64,000 nt of DNA from the IMG/VR virus record IMGVR_UViG_3300039351_000006; one strand, given 5' to 3'. Made by a program: the position numbers and the translations under genes. The first letter of the stretch is position 1. Each line of letters starts with the position of its first letter. Below, piece by piece: positions 1,804 through 57,856 of this stretch. The notes below the pieces were generated by a model. It did not search any database. It saw nothing but the letters and a program-made list of their open reading frames with translations, and was not told the origin of the DNA. The stretch comes from a virus.

Positions 1804-3987
1804 TCAATCCACACTACCTTCATAGGTCTTCTTATTACCGGTTGTATCGTGACGTTCACCACCGGTTGTTGTACCAGACAGAGCGGTACCTGGAATAGCA
1901 TCAGCAGCTGTACTGTTTCCTTCGACCTCACATCCAGCCTCAGAATTAGCACACCTACCAGCGGTACCAGCCAAATCCTGCGCACTCTGACCGGAAACAG
2001 TCTTATTATCAGCAGCCTTCAATACCCTGAAGTAGAGCGGGTCTTTCAACTTATTAGCCATATAAGAGCTGCCCCAGATAATATACTTCTCAGTGATAGC
2101 AGTAGCAGCAGTCCAAGTCTCAATCTTACCCGTCTGACCTGGCTTCAAAGTGACACTGTCTTTAAGACCAAAGACGTTACCAGTTCTATAAGTAGGATTA
2201 CCACTATTATCACTAAGAGTGCTATCATCACCAAAAGTGACTTCATTACTACCCGTATTAGTAATGGTGAACACCATACCAACCTGAATAGAATTAGACC
2301 TCACATCGAAACCACGATTACGGGAATCCTTAGTCTCATACCATTTAATGGCATCGCCACCCACCCTAAATTCGGTCAGCGTCACATTAAGTGGATTATC
2401 AACCGGCTTTCCATCCTTGTCTTTTCCTGGCTGCGTGTAGTTAAGTCGTGTACCAACAGTGGCAGGATTATCAAAACTACCATCACCCTTTTGAGGAATT
2501 ACCTTAGTCTTACCAGAAAGCAGACGATACGTACCAACCCAAGTTTTATCAATTACCCAGCGGTCTTTAACCAAATCAGTTAATACATTCTTCTTATGGT
2601 CAGCCAAATCCTTCTTCTCGTCAGGAACCGGAATACCCTCGACGGTTGTACCATCATCAAGTTGCACACCTGGCTTATTCGGGTCAGAATCCTTTAAAAC
2701 AGTACCGTCCTTAAGCTGAATACCCTTGATGTCTGTATCATAATCATAAATCTGCAAACCATCATGTTGCGGGTCAACATCCTCAAAATCCTCTTTCTTA
2801 GTCTTTGAGGAGTCTTGCTCATCTTTACTGTCTTTGCTAGCGTCTTTATCACCATTGTCTTGATTTTGCGCGGAAGCACTACCGTCCTTACTGTCAGTAT
2901 TCCCGTCCTTATTCTGCCCGTTATTGCTGGCATCTTTACCATCTGTGGTCTTCTCCTGTGGGGCGTCAGAACCCATGCCAGAGGTGTCTGAAATATCCTT
3001 AATACCAAATACCTGCTTAGTAGTGTTTTCATCCGCTTGACCACCGGACATTAGATACAGCTGGTTTTGGAAGTCATTCATGCAGTTAATAAAGTCATCA
3101 CTACTGAAAAGTACTTTATCGAGGTATTCATCTTCCGCCACGCTAGCTGAATACCCTGCTGCGCCCTCGGAAATCATTTCATTCTTAGAAATTTGCTTTG
3201 TTGTCCTTAAACCAGTAGCCTGCTTGGTGATAATTACAGCCCACTCTGCGAAAATCTCAGCACTATCAATGTTGTAGCTAACACTATTAATACTGTTAGT
3301 ATAGTCATCCAGAGAAGGCTCTTTGTCATCAGACGTGCTGGTATTGCTACTGTCTTTGCTGGCTTTATTTTTGGCAGTGTCTTCGGCCAGCTTGTCAACT
3401 TTCCAAGCTTGAATAGCCTGCTGAATATCAACCCTATTAACAGGCACCTTAGACCAATCCAGAGTTGTTCTAGCCAAGGTGATGTTATCCTTGTTTAAAT
3501 CTCCTTGACGCTTTTCACCCTTATTGAAAAGACCAGTCTCTTCCACTTGCGGCAAACTGTATTCCGTCTTGGCAAGCACGGCCTTTTTCATTTTCGCATA
3601 GATAGGGTTATCATTATTGTAGGAGATTTCTTGGTACAAATACCCCTTGTTGCCGGCTTCGTTAGCGGTTGCCAGAGCATCGAAAGAACCACTCTGCACT
3701 AGGGAACTCCAGCTATTATAAGCGTCTTGAGCGGAAACACCGTTCTTATTGCCGGAGGACTTCTTCACGACCACCATAACGATGAGCAGAGCCACAACAG
3801 CGACTATTGCCACAGGAACAATCCAAATCTTGGATTTTTTCTTTTTCTTGTTTTTGGCAGACACCTTTTTATTAGGAGACTTTTTAACCTGATTTACAGG
3901 CTTTTCCTCTTTGGGTTGCTCCTGCTTAAACGCGGTAGGCAAACCAGTATCCCCAGCATTTTGTACTTTTCCACCACTCACACGCAT
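1804..3987 (-). CDS. membrane-anchored protein: Lys-rich N-terminal tail, one TM helix, long acidic low-complexity D/K/S/N-rich linker, C-terminal globular domain
   Basis: 727-aa ORF; hydrophobic stretch IWIVPVAIVAVVALLIVMVVV after KKKKKSK; D/K/S/N-rich repeats. Confidence 0.6.
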   Translation of the reverse strand: MRVSGGKVQNAGDTGLPTAFKQEQPKEEKPVNQVKKSPNKKVSAKNKKKKKSKIWIVPVAIVAVVALLIVMVVVKKSSGNKNGVSAQDAYNSWSSLVQSGSFDALATANEAGNKGYLYQEISYNNDNPIYAKMKKAVLAKTEYSLPQVEETGLFNKGEKRQGDLNKDNITLARTTLDWSKVPVNRVDIQQAIQAWKVDKLAEDTAKNKASKDSSNTSTSDDKEPSLDDYTNSINSVSYNIDSAEIFAEWAVIITKQATGLRTTKQISKNEMISEGAAGYSASVAEDEYLDKVLFSSDDFINCMNDFQNQLYLMSGGQADENTTKQVFGIKDISDTSGMGSDAPQEKTTDGKDASNNGQNKDGNTDSKDGSASAQNQDNGDKDASKDSKDEQDSSKTKKEDFEDVDPQHDGLQIYDYDTDIKGIQLKDGTVLKDSDPNKPGVQLDDGTTVEGIPVPDEKKDLADHKKNVLTDLVKDRWVIDKTWVGTYRLLSGKTKVIPQKGDGSFDNPATVGTRLNYTQPGKDKDGKPVDNPLNVTLTEFRVGGDAIKWYETKDSRNRGFDVRSNSIQVGMVFTITNTGSNEVTFGDDSTLSDNSGNPTYRTGNVFGLKDSVTLKPGQTGKIETWTAATAITEKYIIWGSSYMANKLKDPLYFRVLKAADNKTVSGQSAQDLAGTAGRCANSEAGCEVEGNSTAADAIPGTALSGTTTGGERHDTTGNKKTYEGSVD

Positions 3988-4009: not shown

Positions 4010-4693
4010 TCAAATCATATCAGCTGTCAGTGAAGCGAACAAGTCAGCCGCTTCAGGGTCGGAATCAGCAGCATCCGATTCTCCACTAGAGGAATACCCG
4101 TTGCTGGGTACTTCTTCACCGGAATCGTCCTCAACGTCATACATTCGATATGAAGATTCTTCCTGCGGATTTTCCTTAACTTGGATTCCCAGATTCTTAA
4201 GAATACTACTACCTGATTCAGGCTGCTCTTCAGGTTTCTCCTCTTTTTGAGATGCAACGTTAACTTTGCCACTTTGCAGCAAGGAAAGCACTTCGTTGAC
4301 TTTGGAAGCAATATCAGACACCTGACCGGACAGATTAGTGAACTTGTCTTTCAGGTCTGAAATACCCTCTGGCGGTATGCTTTCTTTCCCTTCTGTTGGG
4401 GAGATGTCCTGTATCTTGTCTTTGCCGACAGCAAGCTCGTCGTCCAGATCGCCCAGACCCAAATCAAGAGCACCAATAGCAGCATTTAGAGAATCAAGCT
4501 CAGCGCTCCAATCACTGACCGCCTTCTCACGAGCCGTCTTATCAATGAAAGCCTTCACTGTAGTACTTTTATGATACAGATTAAAGCTCTCATAAACCAG
4601 CTGAGCTAGAGTATGATTTTCCTTAGCCGGCAGAATTACATCCTGATATAAGTCATCAGGTACATCCACCAATAACCTAACCTTATGCCCCAT
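4010..4693 (-). CDS. acidic hypothetical protein
   Basis: 227-aa ORF overlapping the upstream gene end by 11 nt (operon-like). Confidence 0.5.
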   Translation of the reverse strand: MGHKVRLLVDVPDDLYQDVILPAKENHTLAQLVYESFNLYHKSTTVKAFIDKTAREKAVSDWSAELDSLNAAIGALDLGLGDLDDELAVGKDKIQDISPTEGKESIPPEGISDLKDKFTNLSGQVSDIASKVNEVLSLLQSGKVNVASQKEEKPEEQPESGSSILKNLGIQVKENPQEESSYRMYDVEDDSGEEVPSNGYSSSGESDAADSDPEAADLFASLTADMI

Positions 4694-6488
4694 GATTCTC
4701 TCCCGTACCTACTTGAGTTGCAATCCAAAGATTTGACTTGCCATCTTTCTCAGATTCTTCTTTATATACTGTTACTGAGTCTTTCAACAACTTTTTACAA
4801 TTGTCCAGCACTTTAGAGTCAGGGTTCATAATATGCCAATTCACCTTCATCCACGTTTCAGGCATATTATCCCTAAACAGACCACCCAGATTAGCCAAGG
4901 TAGAACGCATACTAATTTTAATACCCCTGGAGATGACAGCATTTCCAACGGCCACCTGACAAAGCCTCTTAAACAACATTCTACGAATATGACTTCCAAG
5001 GCAACCCACGCTAATTACCACGTTATAACCAGAGGTATCAAGCTCTTCCAAGCGCTTTTCCCAGTTGATATTCATGAGCCAAGCCTCGTTAACATAACCC
5101 AAACCAAGGCTGAGAACTTTCATACCTGGCTGAGCGGCAACGCAAAAGTCAGTGATATTACCACCGTTCACGAGCCACGAAATACCCTTGCTTTCGGAAA
5201 GCTTTACACCCATCGCATGCATGTAGTAATCCATGTATGTGTCAGTACTAAGCTCTACAAGCAGCACTTCTTTACTTTGCGTAAAATGACCCAAAGAAAA
5301 CGCGTCATCACCTGACAGACGCCTTAACTTGTACCCAAGCAGTATTTTACTTCTAAGATATTGCGCAACAAATTGATTGTCACCCTCTGCACCACTTGCT
5401 AAAACCATTACGTGTTGCGCAATATTGCCACTATATTTGGGTAGCAACACGGGCTCTCGTGCAGTGCTCTTCGAGGCAAGAAAAGCCCAATTCGTTCTAT
5501 CTATTGAAACGGTTGCCTTGCTCTCATTCAAACGGCTTTGATTGAGAATTGTAAGACTTTTATCTGCATCAGATAAACGCTTCTCATACTTCTCTTTTTC
5601 AGCGGAAATCTTACTAACCTGATTCTTGGTCTCTTGCAGAGCGCGAAGAGCCTCATCCCTTTCGGAAGTCATCTTTCCAAGAGCCACTTGGCTTGACTGA
5701 TAACTACTCTGCACTGCTTGCAATTCGTTTAACTTAGATTCAAGCGACCTACTATATTCCTGAGAAGCAACAAGCTGGCTCTGAATACCCTGGGTCTTTT
5801 GCTGCTGGTCATAAATCCCCGAATTGGCTTCAACCAGTTGACGCTTAACACCCTCAAGCTCGGCTCTGGCGGAAGAACTTGTGTTCTTTTCATCCTGCAA
5901 TAGATTATTCAGACGAGCAATCTCTTGGTCTTTGCCAACCAAGGCAGTGTTAACCCTATCCAAGTCAGACTTCACATCAGCCAAAACACCCTGCTGCAAA
6001 GTGTACTGCCTCTTAATACCCGAGAGGGTTTCCTCCAGCTGTCGAATCTGCGCCTTCAACTCAATGTTTTCAAGGCCTGCGTCAACACCAGTACTGTAAT
6101 TAGTGCTAATACTACTAGGCTGATAGCCAACATCATAATTATTAATGACAGGAGCGCTGACTTTCACTTCCACCTTGGAGCCCAGTTTGTCATTGATCCA
6201 ACTCACCAAGCCCTGGTCATCACCGGTGTACTTGTAGTACTTTCCAGTATTTTTAATGGCGTTGCCACTTTTACCGTCAAGATACGCATCATTGCTGATG
6301 GCATACACCACCACAACAACTCGCGTATCCCTAACAGCATCAGCCGCAGACAGGTTGGCCTCAGAATCATTGCTAGGGGTAATTATAGTATAATTACCCG
6401 CTCCGAAAGAGGAACTTAGACCCTCAGCTATATATTCCTGAACCTGCTCAGGAATACCCATGCATACCGCTTTGACCTGCAACGCCAT
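4683..6488 (-). CDS. large coiled-coil protein (central heptad-rich segment), unknown function, immediately downstream of the actin-like ATPase
   Basis: 601-aa ORF; long Q/E/L-rich helical segment; TAA stop. Confidence 0.55.
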   Translation of the reverse strand: MALQVKAVCMGIPEQVQEYIAEGLSSSFGAGNYTIITPSNDSEANLSAADAVRDTRVVVVVYAISNDAYLDGKSGNAIKNTGKYYKYTGDDQGLVSWINDKLGSKVEVKVSAPVINNYDVGYQPSSISTNYSTGVDAGLENIELKAQIRQLEETLSGIKRQYTLQQGVLADVKSDLDRVNTALVGKDQEIARLNNLLQDEKNTSSSARAELEGVKRQLVEANSGIYDQQQKTQGIQSQLVASQEYSRSLESKLNELQAVQSSYQSSQVALGKMTSERDEALRALQETKNQVSKISAEKEKYEKRLSDADKSLTILNQSRLNESKATVSIDRTNWAFLASKSTAREPVLLPKYSGNIAQHVMVLASGAEGDNQFVAQYLRSKILLGYKLRRLSGDDAFSLGHFTQSKEVLLVELSTDTYMDYYMHAMGVKLSESKGISWLVNGGNITDFCVAAQPGMKVLSLGLGYVNEAWLMNINWEKRLEELDTSGYNVVISVGCLGSHIRRMLFKRLCQVAVGNAVISRGIKISMRSTLANLGGLFRDNMPETWMKVNWHIMNPDSKVLDNCKKLLKDSVTVYKEESEKDGKSNLWIATQVGTGENHGA

Positions 6489-6546
6489 GAACGCACCTAC
6501 CTACAAAACAAGGTGGCACCTATTATGATGCCACCTTATTACTATT

Positions 6547-7755
6547 TTAGAACTTCTCCGCCATAATGGTTGCACCGAGCACATTAAGGTCACGCGGGGA
6601 CGCACCCTCAGGCGTAGGCAGAAGGTCCGAGTACTTGGCAAGCCTATGGACATAATTCCACACGTACTTGCTCAGAGGGTCAAGACCTTCAGACGCGATG
6701 CTGCCACCACCTACAGGCAGGACAAAGGAAATCTGATTAGCCGCGTAATCAGTACCCTCAAGGTAACGAGTCACACCGAAGTTAATCTTCTGCGCAACCG
6801 CATCCTTGGCCTGACTGACGTAATCCTTGATATCAATGGAACGCTTCGGTCCAATCTTAATTCGACCGGTCTTAACAGCCTCAGCGATAACGTCCTCAGG
6901 ATATTCACCACCAATTTCAGCGTCGGAACGGAGCAGGCGATCAACGCCGCCCTGTACATCTCGACCGCCGTATCCGATGGTATCCATAGAGGAGGAAACC
7001 AGCTTACCACCCTTCACCACGCAGACATCCGTAGTACCAGAACCGATATCGATAACGAGAATCATGGAGTTCACAATCTCGGCATCAATACCCTTGTTGA
7101 ACTTGCTGGAGCTTTCAAACAGAGCTGCGATGCAAGCCGCCGCGCCCTCAGGCACAACACCGACCTTCTCTACAGTTGTCTTAAGCAGAATACCCTTGGT
7201 GATTGCACCATCAGAGTCAGACTGCTCCACCTGCACAGAGCCGATGTCAGCGAACTTCTTACGAATGACATCACGACCGTTAGCCACGTCGTTCGGCGGG
7301 AGCAGAACCATGATTTTCCAAACCAAATCCTGGCTGAGTTCAGCTTCATTACCACCCTTACCAAGGAAATTAGCAATATCCTTAGTACCCACAAAAAGTG
7401 CGTAACGGACGGCCAAATCAGTAGACTGGGAAGAATACTTCTTCTCAGTAGTAGTCGGGCGAATCAGACTCTTGGAAAACTCGTTCTCAACGATGTCACC
7501 GTGAGCATACACATCACCAGCATACTCAATATAGGCATTCTCCGGCGTGCGGTAACGCTCAGGAATAATGTAACCCTCCGGCAGACGTGCATAAGTGTTA
7601 GTCACACTATGATACTTCTTAAAATGATGACCACTACCATCATCAAACACCACATTGAAACGCGTGGCGGAATTTCCAAAATCAATAACAAGCTTGGCTT
7701 CTGTAGCCATCTTCAACTCCTCTTTAAAGATAACCGACCGCCCGCAAACGGACAC
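6547..7755 (-). CDS. actin-like ATPase of the ParM/StbA/Alp family
   Basis: Phosphate-1 motif LVIDFGNSATRF, phosphate-2 motif LVIDIGSGTTDVCVV, adenosine motif VLPVGGGS; ~400 aa. Confidence 0.75.
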   Translation of the reverse strand: MSVCGRSVIFKEELKMATEAKLVIDFGNSATRFNVVFDDGSGHHFKKYHSVTNTYARLPEGYIIPERYRTPENAYIEYAGDVYAHGDIVENEFSKSLIRPTTTEKKYSSQSTDLAVRYALFVGTKDIANFLGKGGNEAELSQDLVWKIMVLLPPNDVANGRDVIRKKFADIGSVQVEQSDSDGAITKGILLKTTVEKVGVVPEGAAACIAALFESSSKFNKGIDAEIVNSMILVIDIGSGTTDVCVVKGGKLVSSSMDTIGYGGRDVQGGVDRLLRSDAEIGGEYPEDVIAEAVKTGRIKIGPKRSIDIKDYVSQAKDAVAQKINFGVTRYLEGTDYAANQISFVLPVGGGSIASEGLDPLSKYVWNYVHRLAKYSDLLPTPEGASPRDLNVLGATIMAEKF

Positions 7756-7837
7756 AGCACCGCCACGAACGCTAATTCATTAATATGTTACCAGATACAC
7801 ATTGAGCTTGGATAAAAATTCATATCCAACTCTTAAT

Positions 7838-7910
7838 ACTTTCTAACTAAAAATTTTCCAATTCTTCTACATGTTAATAATTCCTAACCAGACTATAATA
7901 CTTTCTAACC
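7838..7910. repeat. two direct copies of TAATACTTTCTAAC in the DHH-ParM intergenic region (candidate centromere/promoter repeats)
   Basis: Exact 14-nt repeat ~59 bp apart, upstream (in minus-strand transcription sense) of the ParM-like gene start at 7755. Confidence 0.35.
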
Positions 7911-7917
7911 AGCAAAA

Positions 7918-9468
7918 CTAGCGCTTTTGCAGCACATAGCTAACGCCATTTCTGCTTTCGCTAACATCAATAATACCACCTCTTACAGTAGCATCATCAC
8001 CTTCTGCACCGAAATAAAGCACCTCTCGACCATCAATATCGAACAATACCCTCTTCGGGGAGGCTTTCAGGATTTGAATACCCCCACCAGTATACTGTAG
8101 GTATACCCTCTGCGTACTTGGCGCATAATCATTATACTGCGCTATCTTCCTGCCATAAGTGCTATCAAAAACAGCCAGATTCTCCACAGGGCGGATTATT
8201 TTATCAGATTTACCAGACTTTTTGAATTCTTCCACCAGAGTGTCAACTTCTTTGGCAATGCCCTTGAAATCCACCTCTTCAGGCATACCTGGGATACCGA
8301 AAGCCGCTGAATGGCCAGCTCCGTCAAGGAGTCCTTTCTCATGCAAAACCTCTCTGTAAGGCAAGTTATGCAAGCCTCTGAAGCTGGCACGTTTTACAGT
8401 ATTACCCAGATCACGTGCAATGGCAATGACACAGCAATTCTCGTCGTCTTCCAGCCAACTTGCGGCCAAACCTAGAAAATTACTTGGATTGCACTCAGCC
8501 AAGATATTCTGCTTTACCGGATATTTCAGGTCGATTACGGCAAAATTATTACTATATTTCTTAATGTTGGCCTCTTGTAAGATAGCATCACGTACTTTAC
8601 GCTGGTATTCTTGCCAATTCCTACCGTTAATACCCTGATAGGTAGGGTAACTACCACCCTTGAAAAGTTTTACCGCATCATTTTCCAAATCAAAGCGGAA
8701 CAGGGAATTAATGGCTGGGGACAAAGTGAAATCTATGTACGTTCTTGTTAGCCTGATAACACCAAACTCCCAATCACACCTATTTTTCATAACTTGGTCA
8801 ACGACGTGTCTTAATACCCCTGAGAGACTTCCCTTCTTAAGGCTGATTGGCCTATTATACTGCCAGTTAAAGACTTTTTCCAGCCACCACCTTGCCTCAG
8901 GACTACTAATGTCTCTGACGTCACTTAGCAGTGTCCAGCCAACCAGCTCTTCGGCATAAACGCCACCCCAGTCACTGCCCGAATACCCCCGGAGAATATC
9001 CAATATGACACCAGCGCCACTTTGGTAGCGGCGGTCTTCTCTCTCAAACTCATACTGATTGTTAATTACCACGCCCTTGGCATTGTTTTTGCCAGACTTA
9101 ACTATTAATTTTTGACCTGTTGGCAATTCGTGGTGGTCAGCGGACATGATGTTAATACCCAAGCTGACGAGCCATTCTATCTGCTCTTCCGTGGTTGTGA
9201 AGTCACCGTGCAAGATGTACGCACCGGAAAGGTCTTCTCCTAGATAATTCTTCAAGTCTCCCTCTGTCAGGAAGAATCCGTGCGCACGGTTGGTGTTGCA
9301 ATACCAGCTGTAGGAAATACCCCTCTCCTCCAGCCAAGACATTATAAGTCTGGCAGCGACAACACCATCAATGTCTGGGTCAACGTACACCAATACCCTA
9401 GGTGAAGTCTCCTTTTCCAATTTGGAGAGAATCTCATTCGCCACTTCTTGACCGTACACGCAATTCAC
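7918..9468 (-). CDS. DHH-family phosphoesterase (RecJ/NrnA-like)
   Basis: Motifs VYVDPDIDGV and SADHH in the N-terminal domain; 516 aa; TAG stop. Confidence 0.75.
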   Translation of the reverse strand: MNCVYGQEVANEILSKLEKETSPRVLVYVDPDIDGVVAARLIMSWLEERGISYSWYCNTNRAHGFFLTEGDLKNYLGEDLSGAYILHGDFTTTEEQIEWLVSLGINIMSADHHELPTGQKLIVKSGKNNAKGVVINNQYEFEREDRRYQSGAGVILDILRGYSGSDWGGVYAEELVGWTLLSDVRDISSPEARWWLEKVFNWQYNRPISLKKGSLSGVLRHVVDQVMKNRCDWEFGVIRLTRTYIDFTLSPAINSLFRFDLENDAVKLFKGGSYPTYQGINGRNWQEYQRKVRDAILQEANIKKYSNNFAVIDLKYPVKQNILAECNPSNFLGLAASWLEDDENCCVIAIARDLGNTVKRASFRGLHNLPYREVLHEKGLLDGAGHSAAFGIPGMPEEVDFKGIAKEVDTLVEEFKKSGKSDKIIRPVENLAVFDSTYGRKIAQYNDYAPSTQRVYLQYTGGGIQILKASPKRVLFDIDGREVLYFGAEGDDATVRGGIIDVSESRNGVSYVLQKR

Positions 9469-9584: not shown

Positions 9585-10076
9585 TTAGATGCCGTAATAA
9601 TATGTGCGGCGGGCGTATTCCCTTTGGAAGTCCTCGTCTATTTTCTTAAGCAAACCAATCCAACTTGGGTGAACCTGCTCCAGAGGAACAAGAGTGGCAT
9701 TAAACTTTTCAACGGCGGCTTTACTGTAGCCTTCGGGACGGCAGTAACTCCACTTGATATTGAAAGCGAAGGGATTAGTACATTCGCCAATATTCTTCTT
9801 ACGAATAGGCCAATCCCAGAAATACCCTCTCTCGTTGATGAGCGACTGAATGAATTTATCAGTATTCCTATAACTGGTGCTGCTGTACACAGCATACTGG
9901 GAGTACAGGCAAGTCCAGCCATTCTTACCCTTGTAAGCCACGCAATGAGGCACGCCATAACGGTAGAGAATGTACGCTTCGTCACCCTTGTAAATACCCA
10001 CAAAGGTGATTTGCTTATCACCATTCATACCGGTGGAGAAGCCCTTGCTCTTGATATCCATGTAAGTCTCAGACAT
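9585..10076 (-). CDS. hypothetical protein
   Basis: 163-aa ORF, aromatic-rich, no recognisable motif. Confidence 0.5.
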   Translation of the reverse strand: MSETYMDIKSKGFSTGMNGDKQITFVGIYKGDEAYILYRYGVPHCVAYKGKNGWTCLYSQYAVYSSTSYRNTDKFIQSLINERGYFWDWPIRKKNIGECTNPFAFNIKWSYCRPEGYSKAAVEKFNATLVPLEQVHPSWIGLLKKIDEDFQREYARRTYYYGI

Positions 10077-10078
10077 GA

Positions 10079-11026
10079 TTACTCTCCTTGCTTAGCCATG
10101 ACGTTGAGAGCGCTGAGGAATGCAGCAGCACCGTCCATATCAGAAGCAGCTGCTGCAACAGGCTCTTCCACGGTCTTCTTCCTCCTGACAGAGCGCTTCA
10201 TGGCCTTCTGCTTCTTGGCTTCCTTCTCTTCTTTTTGCTTTTCAAGCATTTCGGCAACATGACGGTTGCTTGCATCATTGAAGTCGGAGAGCTTCTGCTC
10301 AACCAACTCGATATCGGAAATACCCACTAGCTGGTCTTCCTGCTCCTTGCTGGGATGATACTTGGAGACACGAGACCTCAGCATTTCACGGCGACCCTTT
10401 TCAGGAAGCACATACCAGCTCCAGAGAGGAATGTTCTTAATTTCGCCCTTTTCGGAGATGAGGGTACCACCCAAGAAGTTATGAGCAGACAGAACATTGA
10501 GATTACCCTCTTCAAAAGCGAACTTGTAGGAGAAGAAGTACTCAAAGTCCTTCTCACCAGAGGTAATGCCCTTTCCGCTGTATGCAGTATCAACAGAAGA
10601 GATTACTTCTTCAACAGTAACGTACTTAACAGCGTCTTTCTCGTCGTCAAGCAGCAAACGCGGCAGATTCTTTTCAATCTTGAAAGCCTGTTCACCGAGG
10701 TCAATAACCGGAATACCCTTGGTCACGGTGACAATCATTTCACCTGTTTCGGTGAGGACAGCAACGAATTCGGCGTCACCAATAAAACCAACCTTATCAG
10801 CAGCGATAACAGGCGCACTCTCAGCAGCTGTGTTATTCTTGGCAACGCGGCTGAGAATCATCTCCTTGATGTCAGTCTTCGTGCCTTTGTAAACCTTAAA
10901 GTCTTCACCAGAGGAAGTTACCAGACCGCGAACAGGCTTCATTTCGTTGCCGCCTGCATCTAAATTAATGATACCGTTAATGTACTTGTACTCCGTTTGA
11001 CCTGCGATGTCATAAATGGTAATCAA
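10079..11026 (-). CDS. hypothetical protein with basic K/E-rich C-terminus
   Basis: 315-aa ORF. Confidence 0.5.
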   Translation of the reverse strand: MITIYDIAGQTEYKYINGIINLDAGGNEMKPVRGLVTSSGEDFKVYKGTKTDIKEMILSRVAKNNTAAESAPVIAADKVGFIGDAEFVAVLTETGEMIVTVTKGIPVIDLGEQAFKIEKNLPRLLLDDEKDAVKYVTVEEVISSVDTAYSGKGITSGEKDFEYFFSYKFAFEEGNLNVLSAHNFLGGTLISEKGEIKNIPLWSWYVLPEKGRREMLRSRVSKYHPSKEQEDQLVGISDIELVEQKLSDFNDASNRHVAEMLEKQKEEKEAKKQKAMKRSVRRKKTVEEPVAAAASDMDGAAAFLSALNVMAKQGE

Positions 11027-11092
11027 GACTTCAACCTTTCGTAAAAGAAATTCGCCCGCACTAGGGCCACCAACAATACAACCGATTTATTA

Positions 11093-12037
11093 CTAGGCAC
11101 GCTTAGGGAACAAAGCCCCACCAACTGATCCGGTAGTAGAGCGGTTATATTCGTTTCTCCTATCCAATTTATCAGCGTCGTCTTTCGACAGACCACCGAC
11201 AAAATAATCTTCAATAGGATAATTCTTCATATAAGCCAATCTTACCCGTTCTGCAAGCCAAGGTTCGTAGTATTCCCGACCGGTTGCGGAACTTATACCC
11301 AACAATCTGACTAGGCTGTCATCGGGAATACCTTGCTTTGCGCACTCCACTACCTCTTTAAGCATGGCAAGGCTATTATCCGCCGACAAACCCACACTTA
11401 TCAAGGTGCTGTAGACCACTCTATTGACATTTAGTAGGACTTGCAACACCTCTGTTTGCCAATTCTCAGATATGTACCTTGGGCTCCAGCGGTTATTCCG
11501 CATGAGGCCAAGGTACACGCTTACTCTATCATAACTTACTTTGTTACCCAAAGAATATATTTCCCAAACAGGCAGACCAGACCTGAAACCACTATCTATG
11601 ATATTCAAACAATCATCTGATACGCCACCCAGAATACCCCACATGTTTTCCTGGTGACTACCACCTATACCATTCAATACCCAACCTAGGAGTATTTCCC
11701 ATTTCTTCTCGCTGAAGCCCTCTGAGATAAACCTCTTCAAATTATCTAGGGCTATTCCATGGTTATGCGCATAACGAAGTCTTACCAAGACCCTATCAGA
11801 CGTCAACCTGAGGAACTGCGAGTCCAGCCCATCAACCAAAGCCCTGCGAACCTGACAAAGCCAACTTGCACCGTCATAGCCTAGTTCTAGGGCCTGCTGA
11901 AGATATTTATCAATATCCAAGTCTTGACCCAGAGCAGCGTAAATCTCCTCTTGAATGTCCTCGCCTACATGCGGGTATACTTGCCTGTAGTTAGTGAAAG
12001 TTACCCTCTGACCATTATGAAACATTCCTATCACCAA
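11093..12037 (-). CDS. hypothetical protein
   Basis: 314-aa ORF; ends with tandem stops TAG-TAA. Confidence 0.5.
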   Translation of the reverse strand: MVIGMFHNGQRVTFTNYRQVYPHVGEDIQEEIYAALGQDLDIDKYLQQALELGYDGASWLCQVRRALVDGLDSQFLRLTSDRVLVRLRYAHNHGIALDNLKRFISEGFSEKKWEILLGWVLNGIGGSHQENMWGILGGVSDDCLNIIDSGFRSGLPVWEIYSLGNKVSYDRVSVYLGLMRNNRWSPRYISENWQTEVLQVLLNVNRVVYSTLISVGLSADNSLAMLKEVVECAKQGIPDDSLVRLLGISSATGREYYEPWLAERVRLAYMKNYPIEDYFVGGLSKDDADKLDRRNEYNRSTTGSVGGALFPKRA

Positions 12038-18484: not shown

Positions 18485-18587
18485 GAGGGGTCAAGCCAGG
18501 CTTAACATACTTCTATCATAAACCCCTCAAAATTATTTAGGCGGACTACAGCACTTATAATCGACATGACCTCCGAGCCCACCTTAG

Positions 18588-18658
18588 CTGCCCCCGCAGG
18601 ATTCGAACCTACGTTCACGGTTCCAAAGACCGTTGTCCTGCCACTGGACGAGGGGGCA
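18588..18658 (-). tRNA. tRNA-Gln (anticodon UUG)
   Basis: Reverse complement folds as a cloverleaf: acceptor TGCCCCC/GGGGGCA, D stem GTCC/GGAC, anticodon stem ACGGT/ACCGT with loop CTTTGGA, T loop TTCGAAT; CCA not encoded. Confidence 0.7.
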
Positions 18659-18882
18659 ATACGACTTGCCAACGTCCGACCAAAATACCGCGCGTACAGG
18701 CAAGCCATATATTCATATTAACAGGGATTAATACCCTTGCTGCACCATGTGCAAGCAAGGAAAATCACTATCAGGAGCCAAAGAAACCCTGGTCTCATCA
18801 GGCGTTTCCACAGGCCACCCCAATGGCAGCTCAGTAAGCAAATCAGCTGCGGACAATTCATACTTACGTGCAACAGACATAA

Positions 18883-19152
18883 TCAATCCTTTTTCAATTC
18901 TTGGGATTCTTCCAAATCCTCTTGCTCTTCAATCTTAAGCTCTTTGTAGATAGCGTAACCAAGTATTCCAAAGATAACTAAAGCGGTTAACGCAGAACCC
19001 TGAACACGGCCTCTATTGACCAGAGAGCTTTTATACTTGCTGACACCACCACAGAGCTTAACAGCCCTATTTAAATCATTATACTCTTTCAAACCGCTAT
19101 TAACCAAAGCGCCTCCTAATACCCAAAAAGTACGGCACCTAGTAAACAGCAT
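18883..19152 (-). CDS. small hypothetical protein with a hydrophobic segment
   Basis: 89-aa ORF between two tRNAs. Confidence 0.35.
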   Translation of the reverse strand: MLFTRCRTFWVLGGALVNSGLKEYNDLNRAVKLCGGVSKYKSSLVNRGRVQGSALTALVIFGILGYAIYKELKIEEQEDLEESQELKKD

Positions 19153-19294
19153 GCTACGGAAAAACCGGTCTTGCGAAGAACACCATTATCCATAAAATAG
19201 GAAGAGCGATTATTCCATTAACATACAAGATATATTTTAAACCACTCAAAACAACAAGGGTAAGTAAAGAACATTCACAGAATACTGAATCCAA

Positions 19295-19425
19295 CTTACC
19301 CAAGAATTAAAAGGCTGGCTACCAGTTGAGTACTAAACGTCCGGTTAAAACCAGCCAAAAATTAAAAGGCCAGCTATTTTTCTCACATTCAAACGTGGCA
19401 TAGAACCGACCAGAGATTAAAAGGG
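19295..19425. repeat. three direct repeats of ATTAAAAGG(C/G) spaced ~50-57 bp in a non-coding region upstream of tRNA-Met
   Basis: gaattaaaaggctggc / aaattaaaaggccagc / gattaaaagggcaatc; a related copy attaaaattaaaagagaggg at ~17907. Confidence 0.4.
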
Positions 19426-19523
19426 CAATCATTTTCACTCAAATAACCGCGGAAACAGATTACCCTAAAAGATAGGACACTCCAAACAGAATATATACAA
19501 CATTCAAGTTAGGAATGTCATAG

Positions 19524-19597
19524 TGCCCCCAGCAGGGCTTGAACCTGCGACCAAGGACTTATGAGGTCCCCGCTCTAACCGACTGAGCTATAAGGGC
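19524..19597 (-). tRNA. tRNA-Met (anticodon CAU; elongator-type, or possibly Ile if lysidinylated)
   Basis: Reverse complement GCCCTTATAGCTCAGTCGGTTAGAGCGGGGACCTCATAAGTCCTTGGTCGCAGGTTCAAGCCCTGCTGGGGGCA forms a canonical cloverleaf; anticodon loop CTCATAA. Confidence 0.7.
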
Positions 19598-19675
19598 AGA
19601 AAGCTTAAATATTCCTTATTCACATAACATTTTCCCCAATTCAAGCAATACATACAGTATAACAAAAATTAAGCA

Positions 19676-20011
19676 CTAACCTTTAAGAGTGTACACATCC
19701 AAGCCAAGCTCCTCAGCCACATTCCTCTCTAAGGTTGCACCAGCGCTGTCCTCCCATCCTGGCAACAAGAGAATAGCCTTAGCCCAGCCTACCAGCATTA
19801 GCAGGCCTTGACGAAGCAAATCACTTCTATCACTAGGGTTAATTACAGCGGCAGGGCTGTACACCGCAACACCATGAGTAATCAAACTTTTGGCAACCAT
19901 ATCAAAAGCTGGCTTATTAAAACCCTCAATACCCGTCATAGGTCCGGCAATGTACACGTTCTCCAAACCAGAATACCCTAGGATGTCTGAAAGATGACCC
20001 TTTACTACCAT
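19676..20011 (-). CDS. nucleoside 2-deoxyribosyltransferase-like protein (DUF4406-like)
   Basis: YIAGPMTG ... GVAVYSPA ... PGWEDSAGATLE pattern typical of the family; 111 aa. Confidence 0.5.
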   Translation of the reverse strand: MVVKGHLSDILGYSGLENVYIAGPMTGIEGFNKPAFDMVAKSLITHGVAVYSPAAVINPSDRSDLLRQGLLMLVGWAKAILLLPGWEDSAGATLERNVAEELGLDVYTLKG

Positions 20012-20463
20012 GCGTAAACACCCTCCTTAGCAGGGTAGTTCTTACGATTTACGGGATTGTAGCTGGAGATTTCATCTTTGTCCTCATCATCGATATACGC
20101 ACGACGATAATCACTGTGCTTCAAGCCACCCTCAGTCTTGGACATCCAATGATACTTCTTACGCGGAAGAATATTATCCTCCACGCTCTTAAGAAGCTCT
20201 TCCTCGTCAACCAACTTTTGCCAATCCAGAAACTTACGTTCATAAGCGTACTTGCGTACCACGACCAAGGTTTCAACGGTCTGAGGATACGCCTTATATC
20301 GAGTTTCACCAGCGTAATCAATATATTGAACAATACGCTGACGGATGCGAGGAAGGCCGAACATGTCATGAGCTTGCCATACTGTTACATCGCCAATAGC
20401 CTTATTAACCAAATCAGAGGCCTCTTGAGTGGAGACAACCTTAGTGATAACAGTGTCTTTCAT
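20005..20463 (-). CDS. hypothetical protein
   Basis: 152-aa ORF. Confidence 0.5.
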   Translation of the reverse strand: MKDTVITKVVSTQEASDLVNKAIGDVTVWQAHDMFGLPRIRQRIVQYIDYAGETRYKAYPQTVETLVVVRKYAYERKFLDWQKLVDEEELLKSVEDNILPRKKYHWMSKTEGGLKHSDYRRAYIDDEDKDEISSYNPVNRKNYPAKEGVYAW

Positions 20464-20684
20464 ACCAGTAGACTCATCAACTGCCTCTACAATAAGCTTA
20501 GGGCAAGCCTTGGGAAATACCCTTACGACCTCCCAAGCAAAAAAGAATCCTGGTTACTTTAGTGTCGTCAGGCGACTTACCACGCTTACGCAGGATACCC
20601 TTGATTGCCGAGTACTTAAGGTCTTTGCGAGTACGAGACATTTCAACCTCCAAAACAACAAGATACTAACAGTATACCAGATAT

Positions 20685-20761
20685 CCCACCAAAAAGGTAA
20701 AGGTGGGAAATGGCAGTTCCACACAAAATTCCAAGTATTCCCACCAAAAGGGTAAAGGTGG
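20685..20761. repeat. two tandem near-identical hairpin repeats CCCACC-(11 nt)-GGTGG(G)
   Basis: cccaccaaaaaggtaaaggtggg at 20685-20707 and cccaccaaaagggtaaaggtgg at 20740-20761, just upstream of tRNA-Leu(CAA). Confidence 0.45.
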
Positions 20762-20856
20762 ATAATCTCAGCTTTACACAACAACCCAAACAAACCCACC
20801 ACAAATATTAGCGGGGCAATCGATGAGTAGAAAACAAACAGTCCAACCCCGCTTAG

Positions 20857-20938
20857 TACTCCCCACGGGACTTGAACCCGCACTCCGAAAGGAAGCGCAT
20901 TTTGAGTGCGCCGCGTCTACCTATTCCGCCAAGGGAGC
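20857..20938 (-). tRNA. tRNA-Leu (anticodon CAA), type II with long variable arm
   Basis: Reverse complement GCTCCCTTGGCGGAATAGGTAGACGCGGCGCACTCAAAATGCGC...GGGTTCAAGTCCCGTGGGGAGTA; anticodon stem GCGCA/TGCGC with loop CTCAAAA. Confidence 0.7.
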
Positions 20939-20944
20939 AAATTA

Positions 20945-21193
20945 TTAAATTAAACCCTGAGATTTAAGATACTCAGACATTCTTACAGCAGACTCACAGT
21001 CCTCTTTAAAATCAGCCGACTGTGACTCACAAATGGTAACAGAATTACCCTCACGTAAAGAATCCATAACTTCCTTAGCATGAGCAACTTCTGCAGCCTC
21101 TTGGTCAGCAGTCAATGTCACATACTCGTTAGATGGAACAACAATAGCAGCCTCATCAACTCTTCTATTAAATTGAGTTACCATATCTTGCAC
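20945..21193 (-). CDS. small acidic hypothetical protein
   Basis: 82-aa ORF. Confidence 0.4.
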   Translation of the reverse strand: MQDMVTQFNRRVDEAAIVVPSNEYVTLTADQEAAEVAHAKEVMDSLREGNSVTICESQSADFKEDCESAVRMSEYLKSQGLI

Positions 21194-21590
21194 CTCCTAC
21201 ATTGTTATTATAAAACACATTTCTAGCATACGTACTAAGATTAACAATAGCGTTTGCAGTTCTTACATCATAACCTACACTCAGTAGTTTGGATTTTGTT
21301 GCAGGACTGCAATGAACAACAACCCAGTAATTAGTGTAGAACATGCTAGGCACAAGTACCAACTCCAAATAAGACCCTGGTACTCTTAAACTCTTTGTTA
21401 TTATAATGTCCTGCGTACCCTTGATAGTAACCAAAACCCTGTGCCTCACCACACCAGCTAACAGCACCCTAAAGATTTCATCCGAAGAAGTACCAGCATG
21501 CTTTAAAGCTGAATTCAGTACTATCGACCGCCTATAATAACCATTCAGATTATCCACCACAACAGACCTGCGAACAACCAAATCACACAT
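21168..21590 (-). CDS. hypothetical protein
   Basis: 140-aa ORF. Confidence 0.45.
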   Translation of the reverse strand: MCDLVVRRSVVVDNLNGYYRRSIVLNSALKHAGTSSDEIFRVLLAGVVRHRVLVTIKGTQDIIITKSLRVPGSYLELVLVPSMFYTNYWVVVHCSPATKSKLLSVGYDVRTANAIVNLSTYARNVFYNNNVGGARYGNSI

Positions 21591-21897
21591 GGACAGTTAT
21601 CCCTCGTAAACTACCTGTGGCAATCTGAGAATTCATTTCACGCTGACCTTTAATGGCAACACTTTCAAAGACCCTCTTAACGTCTTCGGGAATTAAATCA
21701 CCCTGTAAATCAAGTAAATCAATTGCTCCGTCACCAGCACCACGAGAATACCCGTACTGGTACGACTTCTCCAACAGAGTCTTCACCTCTTCCGCAGAAT
21801 ATTCTGATTTACCAGTCAGGAGACAAGCATTAGTATTCCCATCAGCAACAGGCGGGTGATACAACTCATACCTACCCTTAAAAATATCACCAAACAT
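21583..21897 (-). CDS. hypothetical protein
   Basis: 104-aa ORF. Confidence 0.45.
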   Translation of the reverse strand: MFGDIFKGRYELYHPPVADGNTNACLLTGKSEYSAEEVKTLLEKSYQYGYSRGAGDGAIDLLDLQGDLIPEDVKRVFESVAIKGQREMNSQIATGSLRGITVHV

Positions 21898-21898
21898 A

Positions 21899-22105
21899 TT
21901 ACATAACCTCCACTACAATAGCGATAAAAAAGGAACCAAAAAGCACCAAGAAAAGTCCCAAAGCACCGTACACGGCGGTCTTAGGAGACTCACCATTCCT
22001 CTTACCGAAGCCCTCCCAATAATTCTTTCCAACATTATAAGCTCCAAAGCCCAGAGCAATTGCGACAACCAACGACAGTACTACAATTAGATAAACGCCA
22101 GACAT
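21899..22105 (-). CDS. small two-TM membrane protein (holin-like size and topology; function unproven)
   Basis: 68 aa with two hydrophobic helices. Confidence 0.4.
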   Translation of the reverse strand: MSGVYLIVVLSLVVAIALGFGAYNVGKNYWEGFGKRNGESPKTAVYGALGLFLVLFGSFFIAIVVEVM

Positions 22106-22116
22106 TATTCTAATCC

Positions 22117-22920
22117 TTACTTGTAGGGCTTCAACACTGTATATTTATTAGTGTTATCATCATACATCAGAAATGAGCCATCGCCCCTGGTAGTATTAGT
22201 TAGCCAACTATGAGTATCGCAGAACCACAGAACATCATTATTAACAGTTTTGCTCTTGACAACGGTATTCTGAGCTGAGTGACCCACTATCTGAGTAATA
22301 CCCTTTATACCCTCTGCTCTTAGTTCGTGTTCGCCAGCCCAGCAAGGACTTGGACAACCAAAGCCACCTCGTTCCCGACCGGCAGTAGAGAGCTTACCCA
22401 TGCTGTGATTGCCATCCTTGAGCAGCATGTTATTGGTCTTTTCAACCAACTTATCCAGACCTTCAGAGGGTGACCACAACTTCCTTACCCAACTGGAGCA
22501 AAATCCAGCATGTGAACACGCCACTTCCTGACCATCAGATTGAGTGAATTTCCAACAAATACCATCGACCAGAGCATTCACCCTATCACGTAGTCTATAA
22601 ACAGCGCTGGATTTAGTCGCGTTACCACCAACGCTATCTCTTACATAATTATATGCTTTATCAGAGTAATCAACCATATAAGGCAGGTCATGGTTACCAG
22701 CCAAGACTATTACTTCAACACCCTCTTCTCTTTTGGCGAATACCCATTCTTCAAGGTTTCCGAATGCTTCTATCTCCGCTTTTGCACTTGTATTGTAATC
22801 ATTAAGTAAATCACCTAGCAAAACAACACGCTGAATACCCTCTTGCTGGATATACATGTCTATAAGAGGGGTAATTATATCACTCTTGTTGTGAATGTCA
22901 CCAGAGAACAAAGTTTTCAT
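22117..22920 (-). CDS. calcineurin-like metallophosphoesterase (lambda PPase / Pnkp phosphatase fold)
   Basis: GDIHN, GDLLND and GNHD signature motifs; 267 aa. Confidence 0.7.
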   Translation of the reverse strand: MKTLFSGDIHNKSDIITPLIDMYIQQEGIQRVVLLGDLLNDYNTSAKAEIEAFGNLEEWVFAKREEGVEVIVLAGNHDLPYMVDYSDKAYNYVRDSVGGNATKSSAVYRLRDRVNALVDGICWKFTQSDGQEVACSHAGFCSSWVRKLWSPSEGLDKLVEKTNNMLLKDGNHSMGKLSTAGRERGGFGCPSPCWAGEHELRAEGIKGITQIVGHSAQNTVVKSKTVNNDVLWFCDTHSWLTNTTRGDGSFLMYDDNTNKYTVLKPYK

Positions 22921-23669
22921 TCAGACAGACCCTTCTTAAAGGCAGCCAACCTGCTATTCAAATCTTCTTGAGTGTAACCAGAACTCTGCTCATAAACCCT
23001 AGTCATTACATGAATATAGTTATCTTTCAATTTACCTAAAACAGGCACGCTTATAACTTCAGGAAGAGAGGATGCTTCAAACGCAGCTTCTACAGAAAAA
23101 TACTTCTTCTCCAAATACCCAATAGAAATACCCTCAGAGCGCACAGAGGCTACTTCATCCAAATTCACATAATTTACAGTAGGCCAGTAACCATTCTCCA
23201 GAGCAACCTCTATATTAGTTAGCAACCTGAGAACTTCACCGGAAAACTTATTTGCCCTTACAACCGACAAGCTATGATTATTACGCAGCTTCTTTAAAAC
23301 TTTTCTGGCGTTATCAAGAGCAAAAGACAACGCCTTCTTTGTCAGCAGACTCTCAGGTGTAATGCCATATTTGATATTACTTAAGAAGAAATCGTCCAAT
23401 AAGACATACTTACTATTAATGCTAAACGCTTCTAGAAGATTGAAATTGCCACCAATAAGGCCTTCATAAAAATTAATGGGCATCATTGACAAAACATCAT
23501 GAGATTTATTCTCTTCCAGCATACTTGCACTATTCAGTAGAATCTGCTCTCGCGTAGGCATAACAATGACACGCACATCAATATCGCTATCAGCAGTAGC
23601 CAAACCGTGAGCATGACTACCACCAACCCATGCAGTTAATACATTACTTGTAGTTAATTCAGTAGCCAC
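22917..23669 (-). CDS. Pol-beta superfamily nucleotidyltransferase (MNT/KNTase-like core)
   Basis: GGSHAHGLATADSDIDVRV matches the hG[GS]x9-13Dh[DE]h motif; 250 aa; overlaps the downstream phosphoesterase by 4 nt and abuts tRNA-Leu(UAA). Confidence 0.6.
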   Translation of the reverse strand: MATELTTSNVLTAWVGGSHAHGLATADSDIDVRVIVMPTREQILLNSASMLEENKSHDVLSMMPINFYEGLIGGNFNLLEAFSINSKYVLLDDFFLSNIKYGITPESLLTKKALSFALDNARKVLKKLRNNHSLSVVRANKFSGEVLRLLTNIEVALENGYWPTVNYVNLDEVASVRSEGISIGYLEKKYFSVEAAFEASSLPEVISVPVLGKLKDNYIHVMTRVYEQSSGYTQEDLNSRLAAFKKGLSE

Positions 23670-23690
23670 TACTCAACCTTTCTCTACTTG

Positions 23691-31069: not shown

Positions 31070-32600
31070 AAAAGACACGCCGAGCAACCCTAAAAATTTT
31101 CCAAAACACAAAAACAAAACCACAAACACAGACCAAAAACAACTACAGAAAATAAAGTATCCCCAACAAAAATAAAGACAGTTACCAACGCCAAAAATAA
31201 AACATCTACAACCACAAAAATATAGAATCCCTAACAAGAAAAATAACACAAACCTATCACAAAATACCTCATCCAGCAACCAAAAAATAAAGCATACACA
31301 ACAAAATACTCTCCTAAAATTAAATATAAACATCCCACTACTACACCAATAGCAGTCCACCAAATAAACAAGCATCCAAACCAGACCCAAGAGCAGCCCA
31401 CCAACCTACCCTAAAAAGCACGCCAAGCAGCCCACCATCGCCCACGGACGAAACCCGATACCCTAGGCAAGACAAGGGCTAAGAGCGGCCACAGGCGGAT
31501 ATAGACAGCATATAAGGGTAAGCCAGCCACCCAAGATAAACGCCATAGCCTACCCTAAACAACGACCATAGAAAATGCGAAAACGACAAAATACCCGTGA
31601 CCGAACACAGAGCAAATCCCAGCAAAGCAAGTCCTACCATAAACTATAGCTATTTCAGAGTAAGAATCCTACAGACAAAACACAAAACATTTCTACACGG
31701 CAACAAACAAAATCCCTACTACCCTATTTACCTAATCACCCAACGTAATATAGGAGAAATACACCCACCACGACCAATTAACCAACAGTCAAAGCAGTCA
31801 TCCTCAAGCTAAATAACCACAAAATAACAGACACAATAATTCTATAAAACCTAAGACAATCCTATAATAAGAAACCAATAAAAAGCACCCATTATCCAAT
31901 AGTTAAACAAGACATAAAATAGTCCCTATCCAACCAGTAATAGTCACTATCTAAAAACAACCCAAAATAATAGTTCCTAACCAACTATAAATAATCACTA
32001 ACCAAAATAAAAACAAGATATTTACCGAAATAATACTCCCTAACCAACTATAAATAATTACTATCTAACATAAATCCAAGGCAAATACCTAAATAATAAT
32101 TGCCAACCAAAAACTAATACTTCGAAACCAACGAAAACAAGCATTCTGATACCCAACAAAACCGGCACCAAAATACCCTACTCAGACACTTAGTAAACCC
32201 TAAAACCAAAGACACCGAACAAGCAACCATCCGCTAATAACCTACAGTATTTACACACCAAAAACCAGACGTATTAAACGCAAAACGAATGTAAAAACAA
32301 CCATAGAACCCCAATAATTATACAAGTAATTTAATACTTATAATCCAAAGTATAATAGTGCCTATCCAAATATAGACAATAACACTTTTCACAACAAACA
32401 ACATAAAACAAAAGGGTAGGCCTTAAATAAAAGGTCTACCCCATCATATAAACAACTAAATACTCATCATCTACATACTAAAACTCATCAACCGAAACAT
32501 CATCAATATAATAATCAGCAACCAAAGACAAATACTTTCTAACCAAAAACAACCAATCTTTAATATGTAAAAATACCCAAGAGGACTGAATATATCAGCC
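31070..32600. other. ORF-free region with extreme strand compositional asymmetry (plus strand almost only A and C)
   Basis: Plus strand is dominated by A and C, with G and T scarce; the only ORF (31046..31390 minus) is a low-complexity F/C/L/V/G/W artefact of the G/T-rich complement. Confidence 0.7.
31915..32075. repeat. three iteron-like direct repeats (~45 bp, consensus approx. CCCTA(A/T)CCAAC(C/T)A(G/T)TAA(A)TA(A/G)T(C/T)ACTA)
   Basis: aatagtccctatccaaccagtaatagtcactatcta / aatagttcctaaccaactataaataatcactaacc / aatactccctaaccaactataaataattactatcta spaced ~55-60 bp. Confidence 0.5.
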
Positions 32601-32604
32601 TATC

Positions 32605-48326: not shown

Positions 48327-48328
48327 TA

Positions 48329-57495: not shown

Positions 57496-57856
57496 CTATC
57501 TACTTGCTTGTCTAACAAACACCACCAGTATACCAGATATTACTACAACAAAATAGAAAATGGGTGGTTACATTCAAACAAATGCAACCGCCCAATGCTA
57601 TGATTTCAAATGGCCAACTAGCAGAACGCCGAATAATTCTGCCAAAACCCAGTATAGCACAATATTATAGAACCAGCAAGCAATACTTACTATCTAAATT
57701 ATCTTTTTATAATACTTCCAAACCAAATAAAGATAATTATAATCTATAAAATTACCATATTTAGTAATTAAGAACCAAAGATAAATACTTTATAACCAAA
57801 ACAGAAACAGTGCCAATTATACAATTGGCACTGTTTATATTATGCTCCGAATACTA

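Follow-up and report, generated by a model that had tools for sequence, protein, structure and literature searches.

The 64,000-nt stretch of IMG/VR virus record IMGVR_UViG_3300039351_000006 analysed here, referred to as the window, had a G+C content of 44% and contained approximately 90 open reading frames (ORFs), all on the minus strand, and four tRNA genes. The subject of this study is a cluster of minus-strand genes around one that encoded an actin-like ATPase, in the order RecJ-like gene, 207-nt intergenic region, actin gene, 601-aa gene, 227-aa gene, and 727-aa gene. The RecJ-like DHH exonuclease gene (7918..9468) was a conserved upstream neighbour and is described as surrounding context that may or may not belong to the machine. 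The actin gene (6547..7710, 387 aa) was followed by genes for a coiled-coil protein of 601 aa that is proposed to be a scaffold (4683..6488), an acidic protein of 227 aa that is a candidate ParR-type adaptor (4010..4693), and a bitopic membrane protein of 727 aa (1804..3987), the fourth gene of the module. A 58-nt spacer containing a strong hairpin separated the actin stop codon from the 601-aa gene, the 227-aa gene overlapped the stop of the 601-aa gene by 11 nt, and the 727-aa gene started 22 nt past the 227-aa gene, distances that bore out the operon-like packing described in a first-pass annotation of this DNA. The Shine-Dalgarno-type site of the 601-aa gene was weak (GGTGC-type), and those of the 227-aa and 727-aa genes were GGGAGAG and AGGAG, respectively.

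The maximal ORF of the actin gene extended to a GTG at nt 7755 (6547–7755, minus strand). Because all homologues were 385 to 387 aa in length, the likely start was placed not there but at the ATG at nt 7710, which was preceded by a GAGGAG Shine-Dalgarno sequence. Eight homologues were found among the 5.8 billion proteins searched, and the phosphate-1 (LVIDFGNSATRF), phosphate-2 (VIDIGSGTTDV), and adenosine (LPVGGG) motifs were invariant across all eight. The protein matched Pfam MreB-like_C above the cut-off (8.7e-14) and PHROG 691, annotated as 'partition protein' (2.6e-19), and sub-threshold Pfam matches to FtsA, Actin, and MreB covered its phosphate-2 region. In a comparison of the family profile with all PDB sequences, two ParMs of C. 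botulinum came top (5e-8 and 3e-7), followed by Spiroplasma MreB (2e-6), MamK (4e-3), CorM, and pCBH ParM, with no Hsp70 or sugar kinase in the match list. The ParM/Alp-type actin-like ATPase recognised in the first-pass annotation is thus upheld by motifs, Pfam, PHROG, and PDB profile, and the Hsp70 or sugar-kinase profile mentioned there as the alternative was not what the search returned. Curated NCBIfam equivalogs all scored far under their cut-offs, that is, PRK13917 ParM at 23.6 bits versus 417, PRTRC_D at 35.6 versus 214.8, and BeeR at 26.7 versus 530, as well as MamK. From its sequence, the protein is classified as a very divergent member of the ParM/StbA superfamily, outside every curated subfamily.

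The 601-aa protein had 63 homologues (31% to 100% identity), nearly all of them full length, on contigs of up to 246 kb; the atypical partner noted earlier is therefore real, and the doubt that it might be a frameshift artefact was not borne out. Alignment of the homologues showed a conserved N-terminal alpha/beta domain (aa 1–112, nt 6153–6488), for which no PDB match and only two Pfam matches, both below the curated cut-offs (E 0.1–0.2), were obtained. A short low-complexity linker, rich in G, A, S, and Y and variable between homologues, led to the coiled coil (aa ~139–328, nt 5505–6074), in which the heptad contrast was 0.5–0.67 versus ~0.2–0.3 elsewhere; low-score matches of SMC/JetC/EzrA type gave a consistent placement of the coiled coil, and a PADLOC defence-system search yielded no match, only coiled-coil noise. 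The C-terminal domain (aa 329–601, nt 4686–5504; ~270 aa) was highly conserved, and its tail, G-E-N-H-G-A, was almost invariant among the homologues. In L007, one of the related lineages (10001–11855), the partner gene appeared as two ORFs, of 404 and 220 aa, which points to a frameshift, misassembly, or a pseudogene; it was intact in all other lineages.

The predicted fold of the C-terminal domain matched those of MinD 4v02 (12.6), ParA-family protein 3ea0 (12.5), ParA 8ray (11.4), McdA (11.4), FleN (11.1), and FlhG (11.1), and from this structure model the domain is assigned the SIMIBI MinD/ParA fold. The segment joining strand 1 to helix 1 read SGAEGDNQ, with SGCEGDNQ, AGSDGAAQ, and AGAEGDNR also occurring in homologues, and did not correspond to the deviant Walker A motif xKGGxGK[ST], the Lys and Ser/Thr at the key positions being absent in all homologues. 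As the P-loop residues are lost, the protein has the fold only and does not qualify as a ParA/MinD ATPase; the domain would be a nucleotide-dead 'pseudo-ParA/MinD' domain, probably dimerised by the coiled coil. The partner had first been described by its coiled coil, which was found, but the degenerate MinD/ParA-fold domain was missing from that description.

The 227-aa protein belonged to a small family, with only eight proteins retrieved by an exhaustive HMMER search with aa 1–90 against 1.84 billion representatives, and the family was fast-evolving (37% identity between window and L003, against 57% for the actin-like protein). Every member began with an N-terminal module and a long helix, continued with a stretch that was acidic and disordered, and ended in a short, hydrophobic, conserved C-terminal tail with the pattern (D/E)Axx(L/F)...S(S/G)L. 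The N-terminus, MGHKVRLLVDVPDDLYQDVILPAKENHTLAQLVYESFNLY, had an alternating polar/hydrophobic strand, P-x-x-L, and two short helices, a pattern resembling that of Arc or CopG. In the AF2 model (pLDDT 76), aa 1–12 were extended and followed by helices at aa 13–25 and 29–42 and by one long helix, a layout corresponding to the topology of a ribbon-helix-helix (RHH) monomer and then a coiled coil. Comparison by hhalign with Arc, Mnt, CopG, ParG, and omega was not significant. On this modelled architecture the chances that the protein is ParR-like, with the RHH unconfirmed, appear evenly balanced. The statement that the 601-aa protein stands in place of a small adaptor is accordingly to be revised, since a syntenic acidic protein of ParR-like architecture lies one gene downstream.

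The 727-aa protein was predicted to have a basic cytoplasmic N-tail of ~50 aa, one transmembrane helix (aa ~51–79), and a large outside part. A bitopic membrane protein with a basic N-tail of 50 to 68 aa was encoded by the fourth gene in every lineage, and the window protein shared 67% identity with its L003 orthologue and 31% over 256 aa with a 691-aa protein of pXO16, a plasmid of B. thuringiensis. It was the best-conserved accessory of the four-gene module (63% to 67% identity), behind only the flanking RecJ-like protein (~70% identity). The order actin, coiled-coil protein, small acidic protein, and membrane protein was found in L001 to L004, L006, L007, and pXO16, and was thus retained across relatives with actin identities from 99% down to 28%, pXO16 included. 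In L001 to L004 (5040–6900), a TnpB/IS605-type gene and a helix-turn-helix gene were located a few kb upstream of the actin module, where the window had neither.

Upstream of the actin gene, a position weight matrix (PWM) scan delineated an array of direct repeats with the core GGTTAGnAAGTATTA on the gene strand (7813..7910, minus strand), a candidate parC-like centromere/operator. Units started at nt 7910, 7889, 7848, and 7827, with a degenerate unit near nt 7868, giving four to five units in a 21-nt register. The 14-mer TAATACTTTCTAAC occurred exactly at 7834–7847 and 7896–7909, with a third copy bearing two mismatches at 7875, and formed part of a longer unit reading tttGGTTAGnAAGTATTA on the gene strand; in the window, 10 matches to the 14-mer with up to two mismatches were found versus 0.85 expected. 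The upstream direct repeats of the first-pass annotation are therefore genuine, but the two exact copies assigned to 7838–7910 required repositioning and belong to this larger array. In L003 and L007 (actin 55% to 58% identical), four units in a 21/22/21 register occupied the same upstream position. In L005 (actin 49% identical), two 28-nt tandem repeats were found there instead. Co-evolution of adaptor and centromere would produce such a pattern, with the array kept in the nearer relatives and replaced in a more distant one.

About 20 nt past the last repeat unit, an extended -10-like element, TGgTAACAT (7785..7793, minus strand), was identified by alignment of the window with L003 and L007, in all of which TCTGGTAA(C/T)AT was invariant. 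It was followed by a conserved leader of 74 nt and the GAGGAG Shine-Dalgarno sequence, and may act as the promoter. Iterated sites abutting a promoter upstream of the actin gene represent the parC layout of type II systems. Direct repeats beside a promoter-like element upstream of the actin gene were present in the window as well as in L003 and L007, and a parC-type arrangement has been described for pSK41/R1-type systems (PMC4911067, PMC12270681). Downstream of the actin gene, the spacer contained a strong RNA hairpin followed by UUUUGU (6503..6545, minus strand; dG -22.7 kcal/mol, z -7.1), a candidate partial terminator/attenuator, and hairpins of different sequence with a U-rich tail lay at the same spot in L003 and L007. 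By partial termination, this structure could let more of the actin protein be made than of the proteins encoded downstream.

Searched by tblastn against plasmids, the actin-like protein matched a 'ParM/StbA family protein' (28.5% identity, 97% coverage, E 2e-31) present in ten B. thuringiensis plasmids of 349.6 kb, which from their size and the name pBTHD789-1 correspond to pXO16 (PMC6199540), an experimentally established aggregation-mediated conjugative plasmid (PMC6199540). Eight window proteins matched pXO16 colinearly across 169.7–247.7 kb; among the colinear genes, those for an SbcD-like protein and an AAA protein (44337–45053) corresponded to pXO16 genes at 169.7 and 176.2 kb, the SbcD-like metallophosphoesterase being encoded together with an SbcC-like protein at 47268–49522. 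A colinear backbone with all ORFs on one strand places the window in a pXO16-like class, and genes for FHA, PP2C, and Ser/Thr-kinase proteins and giant sortase-type adhesins were common to the relatives and pXO16. Because of the sortase (59933–61153, 8e-27), the DivIVA domain (see below), the AGGAG Shine-Dalgarno sites, and the link to pXO16, a Gram-positive host is inferred. Judged from sequence, the window is best described as part of a distant, uncultured pXO16-like giant element of such a host.

Taken together, the locus is probably a type II (ParMRC-like) partition or positioning system of this giant pXO16-like element, and a plasmid-like maintenance role, as suggested in the first-pass annotation, is in the plasmid context its most likely function. 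In the proposed mechanism, in which every interaction among the module parts is a predicted one, the 227-aa protein would dimerise through its RHH-like N-terminus and long helix and bind the repeat arrays cooperatively, repressing the promoter as well, as ParR does at parC. Its conserved C-terminal tail would couple the DNA to growing actin-like filaments, the growth of which would move sister copies apart, and the hairpin would keep the adaptor and accessory proteins less abundant than the actin protein. The 601-aa protein would be a coiled-coil dimer whose MinD/ParA-fold domain, devoid of canonical nucleotide binding, serves as a scaffold and not as a motor, and together with the bitopic membrane protein it may act at the membrane or pole to anchor, nucleate, or cap the filaments.

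Several points weigh against this assignment. Filament formation and DNA binding are predicted roles of the module proteins. The candidate adaptor gene is not adjacent to the actin gene, being one gene away in the same operon, and neither a Pfam match at E up to 10 nor the PDB profile search revealed an RHH in the 227-aa protein. Its pXO16 counterpart, a 269-aa protein, had a comparable N-terminus and tail, yet BLAST detected no similarity between the two, and upstream of the pXO16 ParM gene only short two-copy repeats were present, with no clear 21-bp array. The model of the 601-aa C-terminal domain was of moderate confidence (pLDDT 69.6, an alignment of 7 sequences, 4 of the 5 models poor), the fold call being held sound because the match list was near-uniform; profile searches disclosed no sequence-level similarity of the domain to MinD/ParA, the likeness being at fold level only. 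Comparison of the domain by hhalign with E. coli MinD was not significant. Finally, whereas a parC-type site would be specific to the par locus, the repeat motif is also arrayed at 31917–32544 and 57660–57797, and its binder could in view of these arrays be a replication initiator or transcription factor.

Further copies of the repeat, for which a search had been suggested in the first-pass annotation, were arrayed away from the actin gene. The PWM scan of the repeat unit gave 29 hits on the gene strand and one on the other strand (shuffle mean, 1.4), concentrated in three intergenic arrays, placed by the hits at 7827–7910, 31931–32544, and 57695–57797, with 10 pairs of neighbours exactly 21 nt apart. 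The second array (31917..32544, minus strand) comprised 14 copies, most of them paired at a 21-nt spacing, within a 964-nt gap devoid of genes (31641–32604). This gap was strongly G+T-rich on the gene strand, with a GC skew near -0.3 and an AT skew of +0.3, and contained a 63-nt tandem repeat beside the 14 GGTTAGnAAGTATTA-type units; it may represent an origin of replication, a field of iterons, or the main centromere. The third array, of at least four copies (57660..57797, minus strand), lay upstream of a gene for a 407-aa protein with a DivIVA domain (56272–57495; Pfam 1.9e-7, above cut-off), which hints at a shared regulator of 'cytoskeletal' genes. Just before this array, at 57815–57850, a perfect hairpin, CAGTGCCAATT-gtat-AATTGGCACTG, followed by TTTCTGTTTT, resembled an intrinsic terminator. 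Interpretation of the motif as a generic sigma-70 promoter was rejected, its internal spacing being unfit and its occurrence being limited to 3 of the approximately 12 larger intergenic gaps.

It is possible, if clearly less probable than a role in partition, that the repeats serve as iterons or operators for some protein outside the actin system, for example a replication initiator or transcription factor, and that their location has only a regulatory meaning. A register of 21 to 22 bp is typical of plasmid iterons, and the spacing of the repeats agrees with it; the 14-copy array in a gene-free, strand-biased gap, the third array elsewhere, and the 29:1 strand bias of the motif along transcription point in the same direction. 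Against this, relatives retain four units with a preserved register immediately ahead of the actin gene, and a different repeat at the same spot in the distant L005 fits a locus-specific cis site. The two explanations are also compatible, as a ParR-type protein could bind several arrays.

It was further considered whether the element is a jumbo phage or phage-plasmid, in which case the actin system would serve to place or move replicating phage DNA within the cell instead of segregating a plasmid. The approximately 90 ORFs on one strand, the four tRNA genes, the location of relatives on contigs of 200 to 246 kb, and a phage 'partition protein' family as the top PHROG match would suit such an element, for which AlpC/AlpA of prophage CGP3 is a precedent (PMC4446434, PMC5539076). 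The plasmid pXO16 itself was once suspected to be phage-like, solely because of its one-strand gene organisation, and formed no plaques (PMC6199540). On the other side, the ~40 ORFs scanned of the 64-kb window (of an element of ~200 kb or more) included no recognisable gene for a capsid, portal, terminase, or tail, and only a generic Ig-like domain. Among 50,697 phage records of INPHARED, no megablast match to 12 kb and no tblastn match of the actin protein at 1e-5 were found, with only partial, weak ParM-like matches at E up to 10, and scans of GTDB genome contigs and IMG/VR viral contigs with the actin and C-domain alignments detected no relative. The window moreover encoded a sortase and an ArdC-like anti-restriction protein (40497–41387; ArdcN 3e-13 plus an M78 peptidase domain), the latter typical of conjugatively transferred DNA. 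With a backbone colinear with that of a proven conjugative plasmid, a phage is unlikely, and the label 'phage-like element' of the first-pass annotation is not retained.

Somewhat less likely again is a ParMR-type cytoskeleton that has been repurposed to act at the membrane, in a conjugation/aggregation apparatus or at the cell poles, and not in DNA segregation. For such a role speak the bitopic membrane protein as the best-conserved accessory, the conserved MinD-fold scaffold, the same repeat motif ahead of the DivIVA-domain gene, and the giant adhesins and sortases for mating aggregation encoded by pXO16 and relatives, with CorMR of Anabaena as a precedent (10.1101/2025.06.27.661541). Partition by the type II system is, however, better in accord with the array and promoter upstream of the actin gene, which are the classic arrangement of a partition cassette, with the position of the module at the end of a replication/repair block (helicase, RecJ-like, SbcCD) away from the adhesin region, and with the need of a low-copy element of 200 to 350 kb for active partition. 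It is very improbable that the 601-aa gene just lies beside the actin gene and that their products are functionally unconnected, as the strong hairpin with U-rich tail between the two genes might suggest, since gene order is kept from 99% to 28% identical actins, pXO16 included, and both the stop/start overlap of the 601-aa and 227-aa genes and the conservation of the hairpin in position, not in sequence, argue for a single unit.

An extension of the partition reading, more speculative and doubtful as a whole, is that the four genes form a hybrid apparatus in which the actin filament would be linked through the nucleotide-dead MinD/ParA scaffold to the bitopic membrane protein, so that the plasmid, held by the adaptor on several arrays, would be tethered at or delivered to a membrane or polar site. 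If so, the site could be used for partition and perhaps for passing the plasmid on to the conjugation machinery, and a type I (ParA-type) fold would have been co-opted by an actin-based type II system as a passive adaptor.

In textbooks, ParMRC stands for the minimal DNA segregation machine, made of three parts. The actin cassette described here carries two conserved extra proteins, from uncultured giant elements to pXO16, which suggests that replicons of very large size and low copy number require anchoring or regulation in addition to what the minimal machine provides. If the proposed reading is true, it also provides a case in which the ParA/MinD fold is reused without its ATPase chemistry. 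A limited literature search yielded no description of this module, of an ATPase-less reuse of ParA/MinD, or of a ParM/actin in pXO16. As pXO16 of B. thuringiensis, which is cultivable and genetically tractable, carries the same module, the proposal is directly testable, and the metagenomic clade is re-labelled as pXO16-like, not phage.

Other features of the window were as follows. The only hits in an Rfam scan were the four tRNAs, Gln-TTG, Met-CAT, Leu-CAA, and Leu-TAA, located among small ORFs at 18587–23770, and no tRNA gene was found within the 200 kb of pXO16 examined. An SPFH/Band-7 protein was encoded at 33146–34093 (3e-35), and a 912-aa protein at 34138–36876 contained a CAP domain as well as numerous short tandem repeats kept in frame (36327–36517). 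Tandem repeats also occurred at 20685–20805 (55 nt, 2.2 copies) and at 58278–58420, where perfect 24-nt and 42-nt repeats were located inside an ORF.

Compared with the ParMRC systems of R1, pSK41, pB171, and C. botulinum and C. perfringens plasmids, the window shared an actin-fold ATPase, the ParMs being its nearest solved relatives, direct repeats beside a putative promoter ahead of the actin gene, a small acidic protein encoded downstream, with a conserved C-terminal tail and an N-terminus modelled as RHH-like, and a plasmid-type host element. It differed in two additional conserved genes, those for the coiled-coil MinD/ParA-fold protein and the bitopic membrane protein, in the separation of the candidate adaptor from parM by the 601-aa gene, and in the arrays of the motif elsewhere. 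AlpC/AlpA/alpS of Corynebacterium prophage CGP3 likewise consists of an actin-like protein, a DNA-binding adaptor, and upstream cis sites on a mobile element, but comprises two proteins only and resides in a prophage. Relative to the deviant Walker A ATPases of the MinD/ParA group, including the TadZ/CpaE-like two-domain proteins 3ea0 and 3fkq, the 601-aa protein lacked both lysines of KGGxGK[ST], had a 190-aa coiled coil inserted, and showed no profile-level similarity, and its gene was paired with that of an actin-type protein, not of a ParB-type partner.

The closest counterpart was the ParM/StbA locus of pXO16 (NZ_CP045024.1, 240.9–248.5 kb), which had the same five-gene order as the window, that is, genes for a RecJ-like protein, ParM, a coiled-coil protein of ~583 aa, an acidic protein of 269 aa, and a bitopic protein of 691 aa. 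The pXO16 homologues of the module have the accessions WP_000409536.1, WP_000420482.1, WP_000024401.1, and WP_000841051.1. Unlike in the window, L003, and L007, no hairpin followed parM in pXO16. The 583-aa protein possessed the same three-part layout as the 601-aa protein, with a shorter C-domain and weak similarity (E 0.003). Similarity was significant for three of the five proteins, namely the RecJ-like protein (28%, 1e-42), ParM (28.5%, 2e-31), and the bitopic protein (31%, 2e-25).

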